A DNA stretch of 63,999 nucleotides from a virus. Taxonomy: Duplodnaviria > Caudoviricetes. The translations under genes and the position numbers were made by a program. Where the stretch lies: IMG/VR virus record IMGVR_UViG_3300037329_000068, positions 1 to 63,999 of that record; one strand, 5' to 3'. The notes beneath the pieces are model-generated. The model saw nothing but the letters and a program-made list of their open reading frames with translations. It did not search any database and was not told the origin of the DNA. Below, one piece after another: positions 10,482-49,844 of this stretch; the first letter of the stretch is position 1; every line of letters starts with the position of its first letter.

Positions 10482-10541
10482 TTTAGACCTCAGTATGAGA
10501 TAATAGCTTTGTACTGAGGAAATACCAAAGCAACTAGGAGA
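10476..10541 (+). promoter_or_regulatory. Palindromic early promoter cassette, family A
   Basis: TTGTAA..CCTCAGTA TGAGATAATAGCTTTG TACTGAGG..AGGAGA. Confidence 0.8.
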
Positions 10542-10724: not shown

Positions 10725-10790
10725 TTAAGACTTCAGTATGAGAAGATATTCTTGTACTGAGAGATTGACCAATCAATTCGAATTAGGAAA
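10719..10790 (+). promoter_or_regulatory. Palindromic early promoter cassette, family A
   Basis: TTGTAA..TCAGTATGAGAAGATATTCTTGTACTGA..TTAGGA. Confidence 0.75.
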
Positions 10791-17144: not shown

Positions 17145-17208
17145 TTGACGCGGTATCCTCAGTATGAGAAGATAATCTTGTACTGAGGAATTACCATTTT
17201 CTAGGAGA
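17145..17208 (+). promoter_or_regulatory. Palindromic early promoter cassette, family A
   Basis: TTGACG..TCCTCAGTA TGAGAAGATAATCTTG TACTGAGGA..AGGAGA. Confidence 0.85.
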
Positions 17209-18019: not shown

Positions 18020-18085
18020 TTGCAATATCAAACTCAATATGAGAAGATACTCTTGTACTGAGGGAATACCGAACCAATTAGGAGA
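18020..18085 (+). promoter_or_regulatory. Family A cassette
   Basis: TTGCAA..CTCAATATGAGAAGATACTCTTGTACTGAGG..TTAGGAGA. Confidence 0.8.
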
Positions 18086-38957: not shown

Positions 38958-39389
38958 ATGACTTACGTTGATAAAGGACTAACTCTACCGGAAGTATTTA
39001 AAAGAGTTGCAGAAAAAGAAACAATTGAAGAAAAAGCAAAACTGTTGAAATTGTACGAAACAAAAAGCTTGCGTTGGTTTATTGACTCGTTGTATAATCG
39101 TGACTTATCTGATATTGCAATTCCACAATACAAAGTTTCTGTTAATCCATCTGGTATTGCTTTCATGAACATCAACAATTCTATTAGCAGAATTGAAGCA
39201 GCCATCAGTAATAAAGACAAACCACAAATTTTAAATCGTAATTTGACATTGGTTCTAGAGGGAGTCACTTCTGATGAAGCGATTCTTATTGAAAAAATAT
39301 TAAAAGGCGAACGCAGAATTAATGGCGTATCGAAAACGGTTTTTAAGAAGGCATACCCTGAATTTTTTCGTACTGAGGAAGAGGTTTAA
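38958..39389 (+). CDS. Conserved T4-superfamily hypothetical protein
   Basis: EVFKRV...EEKAKLL, LEGV..DEA.L, V.KKAYP. Confidence 0.7.
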   Translation: MTYVDKGLTLPEVFKRVAEKETIEEKAKLLKLYETKSLRWFIDSLYNRDLSDIAIPQYKVSVNPSGIAFMNINNSISRIEAAISNKDKPQILNRNLTLVLEGVTSDEAILIEKILKGERRINGVSKTVFKKAYPEFFRTEEEV

Positions 39390-39429: not shown

Positions 39430-39457
39430 AAACCCCATTCATCCGTTTGGGGTTTTC
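39430..39457 (+). terminator. Hairpin/terminator upstream of arfA
   Basis: AAACCCCA...TGGGGTTTT. Confidence 0.6.
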
Positions 39458-39475: not shown

Positions 39476-39658
39476 ATGTCGTTTCAACATGATAAAGGAA
39501 AAATAAAACACAATGCGTTGGCAGCATTGGTAACATCTAATGCTTTTTTACCAAAGAAAGAAAAAATCAAAAAAGGCAAAGGATCATACAACCGAAACAA
39601 TAAGCACAAATCAGACTACTCACATAATCGCATTTTCAAAATGTTATTTTGTAAGTAG
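39476..39658 (+). CDS. arfA: Alternative ribosome-rescue factor A homologue
   Basis: MSFQHDKGKIKHNALAALVTSNAFLPKKEKIKKGKGSYNRNNKH aligns by eye with E. coli ArfA (QH.KG.IK.NA..AL, F, EK.KKGKGSY.R..KH). Confidence 0.9.
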   Translation: MSFQHDKGKIKHNALAALVTSNAFLPKKEKIKKGKGSYNRNNKHKSDYSHNRIFKMLFCK

Positions 39659-39668
39659 TCTTTTTTTT
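39613..39668 (+). terminator. Long hairpin spanning the arfA stop codon, followed by a U-tract
   Basis: AGACTACT..ACA..CATTT-tca-AAATG..TGT.AGTAGTCT + TTTTTTT. Confidence 0.7.
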
Positions 39669-39695: not shown

Positions 39696-40214
39696 ATGGA
39701 AACCATAAGCAAAAAACCAGTAAGAATAGTGTTTCTTGACATATCAGGCGTTTTAGCCACACACAGAGTTGAATTTTCAAGACTTGAAAGAGGGTGTTTT
39801 GGAGACTTTGACCCCGTTATAGTAAAGTTCTTAGAGTCTGTGTGTAGCAAGTATTTGTGTTATATTGTTATCACTTCAAGAAAAAGAAAGTTATTTAATG
39901 ATGTTGAATTTTTTAAATCAAAGATGATAAAATGGGGAGGCGGAGACTTGATAGATTTTTTGTTTCCTGATGATGATCTTTGGAGGACAACAGAAGAAAG
40001 CTTTAACAATAAGTCATTAGAAATTAATAATTGGATTAAAAAATTTAAAGAAAAATACAAACATAAATTTTATATTGACAATTATGCTATAATAGACGAT
40101 GATTCTTTGGGTTCTGAATTACACGACGATCATTTTGTTCTTGTCAAAAATAAACAGAATGGAATGGGTTGTGAAGAATATAGAAAATTAATTAAAATAC
40201 TCAACAACGGATAA
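39696..40214 (+). CDS. HAD-family phosphatase-like protein (RNA-repair Swiss-Army-Knife type), degenerate motif I
   Basis: IVFLDISGVL, IVITS, EINNW, YAIIDDD. Confidence 0.7.
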   Translation: METISKKPVRIVFLDISGVLATHRVEFSRLERGCFGDFDPVIVKFLESVCSKYLCYIVITSRKRKLFNDVEFFKSKMIKWGGGDLIDFLFPDDDLWRTTEESFNNKSLEINNWIKKFKEKYKHKFYIDNYAIIDDDSLGSELHDDHFVLVKNKQNGMGCEEYRKLIKILNNG

Positions 40215-41464: not shown

Positions 41465-42118
41465 ATGTTAAGTTCATTGCTTATGAATAGTTTGTCTGCC
41501 AAAGAAGCCAAGATTATCCGCGCTGTTTATAGTGTTGGCAAAGACGCTGTTGATAAAAATGTCAACGATTATCTTGTTGACAAATCACGAGTTGAAGTTA
41601 GAAATTATTATGAATTTTCCATTGAGTCTCATGAAGAAGTGTGTAAAGTTTTTAAAACTAGAAAATTTGTGTATGGATACTGCGACTATAACAAATACAA
41701 AATTGTTCTTCATATTGATCACGTTCTGCACTCAACAATAGAAGACATTGTAGATACAATATTGCATGAATGTGCTCACGCAGTTTCTCACCACGTTTAT
41801 AATGAGAGAGGACATGGTAAGTATTTTCGTAAAGTATCTCGTATGTTCGGTAGTGTGCCTAGAGCAACATCAAAAGCATCTAATCCAAGCATTGCAGCAA
41901 AACACACAAAAAAAGAAAAATATAAAATAATCTTTCTAGACGACAAAAATTTAAGAGTCACTTCTGTTCATGAATGCTCACGGAGACTAAAAAATCTTAG
42001 TCGGCGGGGAATGAAGAATAGAAGCGAAACTGTCGGTAAGCTTTGGATGACCAAGATGGAAGACTATAACCAATTTGGTCTAGACTTTCAAAAACTTGCA
42101 GAAGTGGCTTTCCGATAA
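41465..42118 (+). CDS. SprT-like zinc metalloprotease
   Basis: YG.CDY...I.L, DTILHECAHA.....GHG..F. Confidence 0.85.
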   Translation: MLSSLLMNSLSAKEAKIIRAVYSVGKDAVDKNVNDYLVDKSRVEVRNYYEFSIESHEEVCKVFKTRKFVYGYCDYNKYKIVLHIDHVLHSTIEDIVDTILHECAHAVSHHVYNERGHGKYFRKVSRMFGSVPRATSKASNPSIAAKHTKKEKYKIIFLDDKNLRVTSVHECSRRLKNLSRRGMKNRSETVGKLWMTKMEDYNQFGLDFQKLAEVAFR

Positions 42119-42449: not shown

Positions 42450-42515
42450 TTGACACCAGAACCTCAGTGTGAGAAGATGATCTTGTACTGAGGAACTATC
42501 AAAGCAATTAGGAGA
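42450..42515 (+). promoter_or_regulatory. Family A cassette
   Basis: TTGACA..CCTCAGTGTGAGAAGATGATCTTGTACTGAGG..TTAGGAGA. Confidence 0.85.
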
Positions 42516-42802: not shown

Positions 42803-42870
42803 TTGACCCAGAGCCCCTCGGTATGAGAAGATGGTCTTGTACTGAGGGAATACCAGATCAACTAGGAGAT
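42803..42870 (+). promoter_or_regulatory. Family A cassette
   Basis: TTGACC..CCCTCGGTATGAGAAGATGGTCTTGTACTGAGGG..TAGGAGA. Confidence 0.85.
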
Positions 42871-45986: not shown

Positions 45987-47612
45987 ATGGCAGCATTACT
46001 AGAAGATGATAATGTCAAGTTAGAAATTTTAAGGTATAAACACGATAATCTTTCAACGAGGCAAATTAGTCAACTAACAGGAATTGCAAGATCAACACTC
46101 AATGACTTCGTTTTGAAGAAGACATACACTAAATGGTGGGAAAAATACAGCCAAAAACCTGTAGCATCTGGTAAGTTGTCGGCACTGCACGAGGACATTG
46201 AAGTTTTGGGAGAAGGCGTTTATATCGCTATTTCTGCTCAGAACAACACGTTTGTACATAACAAGTTTATGGACAGTCTTGAGGGGTTGGCGTTACAAAG
46301 AAATGCTAGAATTTTATGTGGGACATTTACATACAACACATCAGGATTTCAGAACCTTCAAAAAGGAACTGACTCAGAAGAGGTGTGGTATGATCCTCGG
46401 ATTAAGAAGTACATCCTAGACAAGCCTGTGATGCTCTCTGACGACCTTATGTGGTGTGGGGAACTCAACATACTACCTACAGCCGCAAACCCTCTTAGCG
46501 GGCTTCACAGTTACACTAGATCAGCCTCTGCTATTGTGCCTCATGCTAAATTGCAGCTTGAATCAATTCCAACCCACAAATCGCTTCCTGTAAAGATTAT
46601 GTATACAACAGGTGCGGTGACAAAAAGAAATTATATTCAAAAGAAAGCTGGACAAAAAGCAGAATTTCATCATGCTTTTAGTGCACTTTTAATTGAAGTT
46701 GATAGTGAAGGTACGCACTTTGTTCGCCAGTTAAATGCAGAAACAAGTACAGGATGTTTTTATGATCTAGACAGGTATTATACACCCAATGGCGGTTTGT
46801 ATATTTCTGATTATGTAGAAGCTATTAATTGGGGTGATCTTCACTCTGAAAAGAAAGATGTTGAAGTGTATGATCTGGCGTTTGGTAGAAATCCAAACAG
46901 CATGATAGATACACTACGCCCGAAGGTTCAGTTTGCAAACGATCTTGCAGATTTTACCTCTAGGAATCACCACAGCATCGGCGATCCGTATTTCAGGTTT
47001 AAGACGCATGTTCATGGAAATGACTCAGTGAGGAATGATATTTTTGCCGTTATTTCAACACTTGAATCTATGGAAAGGTGTTTTTGTCAAACTGTTGTGG
47101 TCGAATCAAATCATGATTTAGCACTTGAGCGATGGTTGAAGAATGCTGATTACAAAATTGATCCAGAAAACGCTATCTTCTTCCTTGAATGCCAGCTAAA
47201 GAAATATAAGACAATTGAAGAAGGGGACTTTGGGTTTTCTGTCTTTGAGTGGGCTGTCAAAAACAATTCAAAAGAATTAGACCACGTTAGGTTTTTGAAA
47301 ACAGATGAGTCTTTCCGTATCTGTGACGAAGATGGAAATGGCATTGAATGCGGTCAACACGGCCACAACGGGGCCAATGGTAGTAGAGGCGGGGTAGCCG
47401 TATTTCAAAGGTTAGGAAGTCGTCACAACGTAGGACACACCCATACAGCGACAATTAAGGATGGTGTGTATTACGCTGGTGTAATGGCTAATCTAGATAT
47501 GGGATATAACATAGGTGGTTCAAGTTGGTCACAAAGCTGTATTATAACGTACCCAAATAGCAAGAGAACAATCATTACAATTAAAGACGGCAAATGGAGA
47601 GGTAATGTATGA
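45987..47612 (+). CDS. HTH plus calcineurin-like metallophosphoesterase
   Basis: STRQISQLTGIARSTL; GDLH, D..DF..RNHH, SNHD, HGH, GHTH. Confidence 0.8.
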   Translation: MAALLEDDNVKLEILRYKHDNLSTRQISQLTGIARSTLNDFVLKKTYTKWWEKYSQKPVASGKLSALHEDIEVLGEGVYIAISAQNNTFVHNKFMDSLEGLALQRNARILCGTFTYNTSGFQNLQKGTDSEEVWYDPRIKKYILDKPVMLSDDLMWCGELNILPTAANPLSGLHSYTRSASAIVPHAKLQLESIPTHKSLPVKIMYTTGAVTKRNYIQKKAGQKAEFHHAFSALLIEVDSEGTHFVRQLNAETSTGCFYDLDRYYTPNGGLYISDYVEAINWGDLHSEKKDVEVYDLAFGRNPNSMIDTLRPKVQFANDLADFTSRNHHSIGDPYFRFKTHVHGNDSVRNDIFAVISTLESMERCFCQTVVVESNHDLALERWLKNADYKIDPENAIFFLECQLKKYKTIEEGDFGFSVFEWAVKNNSKELDHVRFLKTDESFRICDEDGNGIECGQHGHNGANGSRGGVAVFQRLGSRHNVGHTHTATIKDGVYYAGVMANLDMGYNIGGSSWSQSCIITYPNSKRTIITIKDGKWRGNV

Positions 47613-48217
47613 GAAAGTTAGAATCGGTTATGATTAACGGTGGAGTAAATCCAGTTGAACAAAGAGCTTACCCAATATCTTCAATGTACAACTTTTATAT
47701 CTATGGAGAAATTGTCTCTGATATCGGATCATACGTTGATATGATCACAGTAATGGATACGGCAGAAGAAAATGATGTAATTAATCTTTACATTAACACT
47801 GGCGGAGGCTCACTTGAATCTACTATCTCAATCGTCCACGCAATGATTCGGTCAAAAGCACAAATTGTATGTCATGCAGATGGACAAATTGCTAGTGCAG
47901 GAACACTGATTTTCTTTGCAGGAAGTTCTTTTGTGGTTTATCCTTTTGCTCACGCTATGTTTCATGATGGCTCTACTATTATTGGTGGAAAGTTTTCTGA
48001 AAATTTGAAAGCGGCGGAAGCAACAAGTGCATTGATAAAGAAAATTTGTATGGAGCTTTATCGTCCATACTTTACCAAAAAAGAAGTTAAAGATATTCTA
48101 AATGGTAAAGATATGTACTTGACATCGGATGAATTAAACGACCGACTTATTGCAGGGGTAGAAATTAGTAAAAAAGAAGCGGAAGAACTGAAAGGACTAG
48201 AGGAACTTATTTCTTAA
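47609..48217 (+). CDS. ClpP-like serine protease
   Basis: IYGEI, LYINTGGG, ASAGTLI (catalytic Ser), MFH, D.YLTSDE. Confidence 0.85.
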   Translation: MRKLESVMINGGVNPVEQRAYPISSMYNFYIYGEIVSDIGSYVDMITVMDTAEENDVINLYINTGGGSLESTISIVHAMIRSKAQIVCHADGQIASAGTLIFFAGSSFVVYPFAHAMFHDGSTIIGGKFSENLKAAEATSALIKKICMELYRPYFTKKEVKDILNGKDMYLTSDELNDRLIAGVEISKKEAEELKGLEELIS

Positions 48218-49097: not shown

Positions 49098-49844
49098 ATG
49101 AGCAAAAAGCCAAGTAGATTAAAAGTTGTAGAAGGTAGTTCCCCAGAAGCACATAAGACCTACGCTGGTAAAAAGTTAACACAGCATGATCTTGCAGCAT
49201 TCCCCGATAATCCAACCTATCCGCAACAGCAATACATGGATAGCCATTTCAGAGATACAGAAATTATTCTGCAATTGGGAAGTGCTGGCACTGGAAAGTC
49301 TTTTACAGCCATGTATTGTGCATTAGCAGACGTTTTTAATAGTGCAACGCCTTACGACAAAATTGCGATTTTCCGAAGCGCCGTTCAGGGCAGGGATATT
49401 GGGTTTTTGCCCGGTGATCAAGCTGAAAAAGATCAGGCGTATGAAGCTCCATACAAAGCACTGTGTGATGAGGCTATGAAATTCAAAACCAATAACTATG
49501 ATAACTTAAAAGCTTCTGGTTACATTGATTTTCATAACACATCGTTCTTGCGAGGAACTACGTTTAACGATACAATTCTACTTGTTGATGAGTGTCAGTC
49601 TATGACTTATCTTGAATTGTCAACACTGATTACTCGTGTCGGTATCCGTTCAAAGATTATTTTTTGTGGCGACACAAAACAAAATGACCTACATAAAAAA
49701 ACTGACGTATCTGGACTGGAACAGTTTTTGAAAGTTATTGATAAAATGCCGTCATCCTGTATTGACATTGTGCGATATACTCCAAAGGATATTGTACGAT
49801 CTGGAATCTGCAAAGCGTTCTTGTTAGCCGAAGAAGAAGTTTAA
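49098..49844 (+). CDS. phoH: PhoH-family ATPase
   Basis: GSAGTGKS, RSAV..RDIGFLPG, FLRGTTF, VDECQ, TRVG..SK..FCGD..Q.D, DIVRSG. Confidence 0.95.
   Translation: MSKKPSRLKVVEGSSPEAHKTYAGKKLTQHDLAAFPDNPTYPQQQYMDSHFRDTEIILQLGSAGTGKSFTAMYCALADVFNSATPYDKIAIFRSAVQGRDIGFLPGDQAEKDQAYEAPYKALCDEAMKFKTNNYDNLKASGYIDFHNTSFLRGTTFNDTILLVDECQSMTYLELSTLITRVGIRSKIIFCGDTKQNDLHKKTDVSGLEQFLKVIDKMPSSCIDIVRYTPKDIVRSGICKAFLLAEEEV

Follow-up and report, generated by a model that had tools for sequence, protein, structure and literature searches.

A phage arfA gene with its stop codon inside a conserved 3' hairpin resembling those of bacterial arfA genes

Results

The window, i.e., the whole stretch of 63,999 nucleotides that was analyzed, is a 64-kb virus record with an estimated completeness of about 40% and a GC content of about 36%. 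It encodes T4-type baseplate wedge and hub proteins, rIIA, an ATP-dependent DNA ligase and two tRNAs, and a comparison of the baseplate wedge protein places Pseudomonas phage pf16 (41.7% identity, 95% query cover) nearest among cultured phages. At 39476–39658 on the + strand is an arfA open reading frame (ORF) of 60 amino acids (aa), which ends in ...SDYSHNRIFKMLFCK and carries the variable tail NRIFKMLFCK. The sequence AGAGA found 9–13 nt 5' of its start is a possible ribosome-binding site, and a scan of the + strand yielded no convincing arfA promoter. The upstream gene (38958–39389, + strand; phrog_461), which adjoins arfA in relatives too, encodes a 143-aa protein of unknown function. Between the two genes lies a terminator-like hairpin (39430–39456, + strand) with an 8-bp stem (AAACCCCA/TGGGGTTT), a 10-nt loop and a following series of T's; it is kept in the related loci L002/L003 and L103/L104, and it is absent from the consensus terminator scan, whose loop limit of 8 nt its loop exceeds. 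Directly 3' of arfA (39696–40214, + strand) is a gene for a HAD phosphatase domain protein of the "Swiss Army Knife" RNA-repair type (PF18143, E 2.5e-13; phrog_1818), for which tblastn against the cultured-phage collection returned no match. The same order is found in the distant relative L106, where a phrog_461 homologue is located immediately 5' of arfA and the HAD gene directly 3' of it (1701–2225). Judged from this arrangement, arfA and the HAD gene may constitute a ribosome-rescue plus RNA-repair module.

Elsewhere in the window, the genes for a ClpP-like protease (47609–48217; PF00574, E 4.5e-14), PhoH (49098–49844; E 3e-39) and an SprT-like protein (41465–42118) share one early-gene region with each other. 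ARAGORN detected no tmRNA within the window, and an Rfam search of the window returned only the two tRNAs, with no family matched at the arfA hairpin. A palindromic repeat, CCTCAGTATGAGAAGAT..ATCTTGTACTGAGG, which forms hairpins of 14–18 bp, occurs on both strands at 10488, 10731–10762, 17157–17188, 18032–18063, 28083, 28789, 42462–42493, 42816–42847, and 57681; with up to 2 mismatches allowed, 15 half-sites were observed in the window vs. 0.02 expected, one of which (39362–39378) falls inside the gene upstream of arfA and is probably spurious. This repeat may be a phage regulatory or processing signal.

The identification of the ORF as arfA in the initial annotation is borne out by its match to the Pfam family PF03889 (65.9 bits at a cut-off of 25.5, E 2.2e-18), which covers residues 3–45 of the protein and positions 2–44 of the 44-position model and was confirmed in a six-frame search. 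These residues form the conserved ArfA core (39482–39610, + strand), which contains the KKGKGSY motif at residues 32–38 and an alanine (A17) that aligns with A18 of Escherichia coli ArfA and is nearly invariant across 55 family members. The A18T change is reported to inactivate E. coli ArfA (PMC8012679). Over 42 residues the window ArfA shares 55% identity with its E. coli counterpart, and it matches the ArfA chains of ribosome-RF2 structures in the PDB (E 8e-9). Between the window and L002, L103, and L104, 6–8 of the differing codons within codons 1–45 are synonymous and 1 is non-synonymous. By these measures the gene is a genuine arfA, and its core is under purifying selection. Megablast and tblastn searches with the region and with ArfA against the phage collection returned nothing useful; this blank is uninformative because pf16, which is part of the same collection, carries an ArfA ORF that was detected with the HMM, and the short, lysine-rich ArfA query is the suspected reason for it.

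The initial annotation described an imperfect hairpin of ~49 nt that starts after the ArfA core, holds the stop codon in its 3' arm, encodes a hydrophobic tail and is followed by a U-tract, and each of these features was recovered. The hairpin (39613–39661, + strand) begins at codon 46, right after the core, and spans codons 46–60 and the stop codon. Its stem of 20 bp (8+3+3+6) is interrupted by three 1 × 1 mismatches and closed by the loop UCA, with a GC fraction of 0.29. The stop codon TAG (39656–39658, + strand) is located in the 3' arm of the basal 8-bp stem, 3–5 nt inside the stem base and 5' of a run of eight T's (39661–39668, + strand); this T8 run lies directly 3' of the stem, with its first T paired to A39613. 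The last eight residues of the 60-aa ORF, IFKMLFCK, are hydrophobic, whereas the 54-aa alleles of related phages end in KRIF and the L106 ORF in RIAA.

The predicted minimum free energy (MFE) of the hairpin is −17.9 kcal/mol, compared to −8.2 ± 2.2 kcal/mol in 200 dinucleotide shuffles, none of which was as good (z −4.49); for the 100 nt 3' of the KGKGS motif, z is −5.8. By energy, the hairpin is not among the top 40 of the 2243 local structures across the 64-kb window, so its significance rests on the local z-score, on conservation and on its homologous position. A hairpin followed immediately by T8 has, as far as sequence goes, the form of an intrinsic (rho-independent) terminator, i.e., a stem-loop and then a U-run. 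A simple terminator scan of the window did not list it, probably owing to the interrupted stem, and in a separate scan of window hairpins with a T-tract after them it ranked 5th of 141. A dozen clean terminators of the same phage, which were chosen by eye, have uninterrupted stems of 8–15 bp with a GC fraction of 0.33–0.57.

Scans of viral and metagenome contigs provided the DNA of five distinct relatives of the same clade, L002, L103, L104, L105, and the more distant L106, whose ArfA (P0005) is 70% identical to that of the window (L002 equals L003 over the 341 nt aligned, and L002 and L006 are the same contig). All five have a hairpin at the same codons, with z-scores of −4.75 for L002, −5.63 for L103, and −7.48 for L106. 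In L002, L103, L104, and L105 the stem is followed by a run of T6–T10. The L106 hairpin, which differs in sequence, has 26 bp, an MFE of −29.7 kcal/mol and the TAA stop in its loop, and no U-run is found 3' of it; termination therefore cannot explain the conservation of the hairpin there.

The C-terminal tail and the stop codon vary within this clade. The 54-aa ORF of L002/L003/L103/L104 ends in ...KRIF and has its TAA in the apical loop; the window and the gene for protein P0001 have the stop in the 3' arm and the tails KMLFCK and KVLLYE, respectively; and the L106 ORF ends in ...KRIAA. Thus four tail states are found after codon 45 (none, KMLFCK, KVLLYE, and AA), and in none of the five relatives does the stop leave the hairpin, although it shifts between loop and 3' arm. 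The L105 allele (1501–1683; protein P0006) lacks one A in the A-run after codon 29 and is consequently out of frame through KGKGSY; its frame closes at TAG in the 3' arm. The missing base reflects either a disrupted gene or a sequencing error in the homopolymer.

When the 5' arms of the window and L106 were anchored on their shared D-Y-S codons, 6 of the 21 codon-anchored positions showed double changes that keep the pairing (A-U to U-A, C-G to U-A, A-U to U-A, C-G to G-C, U-A to A-U, and C-G to A-U), a covariation signal that mostly comes from this one distant relative and from MFE folds predicted for each sequence. Of these 21 positions, 20 are paired in L106 and 16 in the window. Within the close sub-clade, where there is little variation, one compensatory pair was found. 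An RNAalifold analysis of a MAFFT alignment, which also gave one compensatory pair, was set aside in favor of the codon-anchored comparison, as L106 was misaligned in it. Given that the structure is kept while the tail and the stop drift, it is the RNA structure, and not the tail peptide, that appears to be under selection and, to judge from these sequences, to be conserved.

Beyond this clade, we found 17 distinct IMG/VR loci that encode ArfA relatives. All 10 of the phage ArfA proteins tested passed the Pfam cut-off, one of them at a borderline 25.8 bits. Three of the phage arfA loci belong to complete genomes (151–182 kb, with terminal repeats) and another to pf16. In the 100 nt that follow the motif, z was ≤ −3 in 12, > −2 in 8 and between these values in 3 of 23 viral or metagenomic loci including the window, a set in which L012/L013 and L016/L017 are near-duplicates and L009, L107, and L108 may be bacterial DNA. 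The tail after the motif in the viral and metagenomic set has a median length of 15 aa (range 8–34). The window clade, L008, L011, L015, and L020 make up a hairpin-bearing class, whereas pf16, L007, L010, L012, L018, and others fall into a short unstructured class, in which ORFs of 43–52 aa have a real stop 8–14 aa after KGKGS and z is > −2. These short genes look pre-truncated and constitutive, which would be the opposite solution to that of the window.

Small arfA ORFs are overlooked in phage annotation, as exemplified by the RefSeq record of pf16. The pf16 ORF (L014, 1489–1632, corresponding to about 131775–131918 of NC_041881.1 on the − strand; L110/L111) encodes a 47-aa protein of the ArfA family (70.9–72.5 bits), and its stop is at the top of a short hairpin (9 bp) that lacks a following U-run. 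The record annotates no ArfA at this position and has a hypothetical CDS on the opposite strand (gp199, 131883–132101) that overlaps the site. In L008 (1501–1653) and L015 (1501–1659) a short GC-rich terminator hairpin is found inside the arfA ORF, and the TAA stop is directly in or after the U-run (...CCCTTTTT TAA and ...CTCCTTTT AA, respectively), so that terminated transcripts would be predicted to end at or within the stop codon. A literature search identified one phage paper in which ArfA is annotated (g10 of Citromicrobium phage RXM) and, among titles and abstracts, no study of phage arfA regulation.

In bacteria, the arfA stem-loop is described as leading, by RNase III cleavage or premature termination, to a non-stop mRNA whose product is tagged by tmRNA; that of E. 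coli reportedly serves as a rho-independent terminator as well as an RNase III site (PMC8012679). The account of hairpin-truncated, tmRNA-gated bacterial arfA mRNA on which the initial annotation drew agrees with these published descriptions. In the same source, E. coli ArfA is active without its last 17–18 residues, only 46–48 residues of the active truncated protein are modeled in structures, and the occasional full-length bacterial ArfA is unstable owing to its hydrophobic C-terminus (PMC8012679).

Related loci were collected with a 14-sequence ArfA alignment, and 80 bacterial arfA loci were taken. A hairpin was found in 79 of the 80 loci; for the 100 nt after the motif, z was ≤ −3 in 52 and > −2 in 6, and the tail after the motif has a median length of 26 aa (range 17–83). 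An automated pick, which took one best hairpin per locus starting ≤50 nt from the KGKGS motif, called the stop after the hairpin in 54 loci, in the 3' arm in 11, in the loop in 9 and in the "5' arm" in 5, the last five and a few others being probably mis-picked hairpins. The E. coli stop, for instance, is in the "3' arm" in the automated pick and "after" the stem in a plain MFE fold.

Inspection gave clear cases of both kinds of buried stop: Providencia (L091 and L094), Xenorhabdus (L069/L070) and a Neisseriaceae genome (L044) carry it deep in the 3' arm, and Vibrio (L071), Pseudoalteromonas (L031/L036), and Parasalinivibrio (L074) carry it in the apical loop; the phage clade has both states. 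The Providencia and Xenorhabdus loci also have a T-rich tail after the stem, like the window, and Providencia stuartii L094 (TAG in the 3' arm, T-rich tail, z −6.66) has the window's architecture on a larger scale, the stems of the bacterial buried-stop hairpins being longer (24–40 bp) and more stable (−25 to −44 kcal/mol) than the phage stem. Judged from these sequences, the buried stop belongs to the variants already found among bacterial arfA genes and does not represent rewiring by the phage, and the novelty that the initial annotation had implied for it does not hold. Schaub et al. reportedly demonstrated in 2012 that ArfA of Proteus mirabilis and of Vibrio fischeri is synthesized from non-stop mRNA.

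The arfA gene of E. coli (yhdL) resembles that of the window in that a long, interrupted stem-loop within the coding region comes after the core and in that the tail is hydrophobic. One-nucleotide mismatches, which the window stem has too, are described in the E. coli arfA cleavage site. The two genes differ in ORF length (72 aa in E. coli vs. 60 aa in the window) and in the main stem, which has 26 bp in E. coli (z −4.07) and is shorter (20 bp) and AU-rich in the window. They differ further in the position of the stop, which in the MFE fold is 11 nt 3' of the main stem in E. coli and is inside the stem in the window; with the stop beyond the stem, premature termination in E. coli also yields a non-stop mRNA. 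In RefSeq, an E. coli "arfA-derived small regulatory RNA" has its 5' end after codon 55, a point that corresponds to a 1-nt internal loop of the 5' arm in the E. coli fold and agrees with the loss of 17–18 residues, and we infer that this 5' end is the RNase III cut. The brfA gene of Bacillus subtilis is similar in that a rescue factor is made from a truncated non-stop mRNA under repression by trans-translation (PMC8012679; PMC6881298). It encodes an unrelated protein, however, and its rho-independent terminator is described as lying 5' of the stop, so that termination alone gives a non-stop mRNA, unlike in the window.

The arfA genes of Vibrio, Pseudoalteromonas, and Parasalinivibrio end in ...MAA, ...KVA, ...KAA, or ...IAA. 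Nine loci have such ends (L031, L035, L036, L045, L071, L074, L077, L096, and L101), and the stop was called in the hairpin loop in 7 of them and in the "5' arm" in L045 and L077. The SsrA tag ends in ...LAA, which these AA-type C-termini, including ...RIAA of the phage relative L106, resemble. Such ends may make full-length ArfA a protease substrate and could thereby provide a second lock on expression.

Discussion

The initial annotation offered two readings of the phage hairpin, i.e., RNase III cleavage that makes a non-stop mRNA and lets the phage sense the load on host trans-translation, or termination after the stop that gives constitutive ArfA. The position of the stop bears directly on both. 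A transcript released in the T-run would extend some 10 nt past the stop, and its translation would be expected to end by ordinary release-factor termination. The window does not have the geometry for premature termination upstream of the stop: because the T-run comes only after TAG, termination is closed as a route to a non-stop mRNA. Since termination cannot remove the stop, a tmRNA-gated circuit would require endonucleolytic (RNase III-type) cleavage within the stem. The minimum substrate of RNase III is about two helical turns. Cleavage of this type fits the length of the predicted stem (20 bp in the window, 26 bp in L106) and the comparative data, and any cut within the hairpin keeps residues 1–45, i.e., the whole conserved core. 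The reading of the hairpin as a sensor is favored by the comparative data, with the restriction that its termination route is excluded and that only a cut in the stem would remove the stop.

We propose, as a reading with about an even chance of being right, that the phage arfA gene came with an arfA-type 3' regulatory hairpin, kept it, and retained regulation through cleavage. Host RNase III would cut the 20-bp stem and remove the stop codon, leaving a non-stop arfA mRNA. Normally, host tmRNA-SmpB would resolve the ribosomes that reach the end of this mRNA and tag the nascent ArfA for degradation. If trans-translation were overloaded or depleted by infection, untagged truncated ArfA of about 50 aa would be released and, together with host RF2, would free stalled ribosomes. 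We infer the cleavage, the tagging by tmRNA and the gain to the phage from the features described above. With the T8 run, the hairpin is likely to serve also as the terminator of the transcription unit, a role reported for its E. coli counterpart as well.

This proposal is favored over the explanation that the hairpin is a plain intrinsic terminator or 3'-end stabilizer which overlaps the last codons as a consequence of a compact genome, an explanation that we rate as possible but rather unlikely. TAG would then be kept in the transcript, RF1 would terminate translation, and full-length ArfA would be made constitutively regardless of tmRNA, which again strikes us as somewhat doubtful. A terminator would look identical to what is found in the window's sub-clade, where a run of T6–T10 follows the stem; terminated transcripts retain the stop, which lies within the stem; and the gene upstream of arfA also ends at a hairpin. 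Moreover, constitutive phage ArfA appears to exist, in that several phage genes consist of a short ORF that closes with a real stop and shows no significant structure. The 8 of the 23 viral or metagenomic loci that lack significant structure likewise count against retained regulation, given that phages evidently can do without the hairpin, as do the 54-aa alleles, which lack the hydrophobic tail that destabilizes full-length E. coli ArfA. However, L106 has a longer hairpin at the same codons without a U-tract, the stem in the window is long, AU-rich and interrupted compared to the shorter and GC-richer clean terminators that were picked by eye, and the position of the hairpin matches that of bacterial arfA hairpins. 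A terminator could follow the stop, yet the mobile stop remains in the hairpin in all five relatives. The maintenance of the hairpin by compensatory changes in L106, where the U-tract is missing and the tail and the stop have drifted, shifts the odds toward a retained regulatory hairpin.

Two further explanations appear improbable. If the hairpin were a translation-coupled attenuator, it would tune the downstream HAD RNA-repair gene, not ArfA: a closely following ribosome would cover the 5' arm and permit read-through, while a lagging or stalled ribosome would let the hairpin form and transcription stop. The stop in the stem, the T-run next to it, the HAD gene 28 nt further on without a recognizable promoter of its own, and the conserved order of arfA and the HAD gene are in line with this arrangement, which we nevertheless hold to be quite unlikely, in its mechanism as in its target. 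It is derived purely from geometry, L106 keeps the hairpin without the U-tract, and in the 54-aa alleles the stop in the loop alters the position of the ribosome while the hairpin is still kept. Alternatively, the hairpin may have been inherited with the gene from a bacterial donor and be functionless in the phage. Bacterial arfA nearly always has a hairpin (z ≤ −3 in 52/80 and > −2 in only 6/80 loci), and some phage copies have lost it, as would suit such a relic. Between the window and L106, however, the sequence has almost fully diverged while six double changes have kept the pairing, which is unlike neutral decay and leaves an inherited relic with a very small share of the probability.

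The feature is real, and it is a known bacterial arrangement, here in a phage. In bacteria, control of ArfA through a non-stop mRNA of its own making is a textbook example of a feedback loop. That a lytic T4-like phage carries the whole non-stop, tmRNA-gated arfA switch as a sensor of the ribosome-rescue capacity of its host is a tentative suggestion, which we hold to be somewhat short of probable. If true, the phage makes its rescue factor only once infection saturates or exhausts host trans-translation, and related large phages went the other way, with a constitutive ArfA that is truncated from the outset and has no hairpin. For the phage, the gain would presumably be that ArfA frees ribosomes from mRNAs cut in infection or by host RNases, which fits the neighboring HAD gene of the RNA-repair type; on that view, the conserved pairing of arfA with this gene would suggest a module for sustaining ribosome function while mRNAs are being cleaved in the course of infection or by host RNase-based defenses. 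Phage arfA genes with and without the hairpin represent a natural experiment on the importance of gating, and if the cis element of this feedback loop is maintained by selection in a lytic phage, phages would be monitoring the collapse of host trans-translation during infection and compensating for it.
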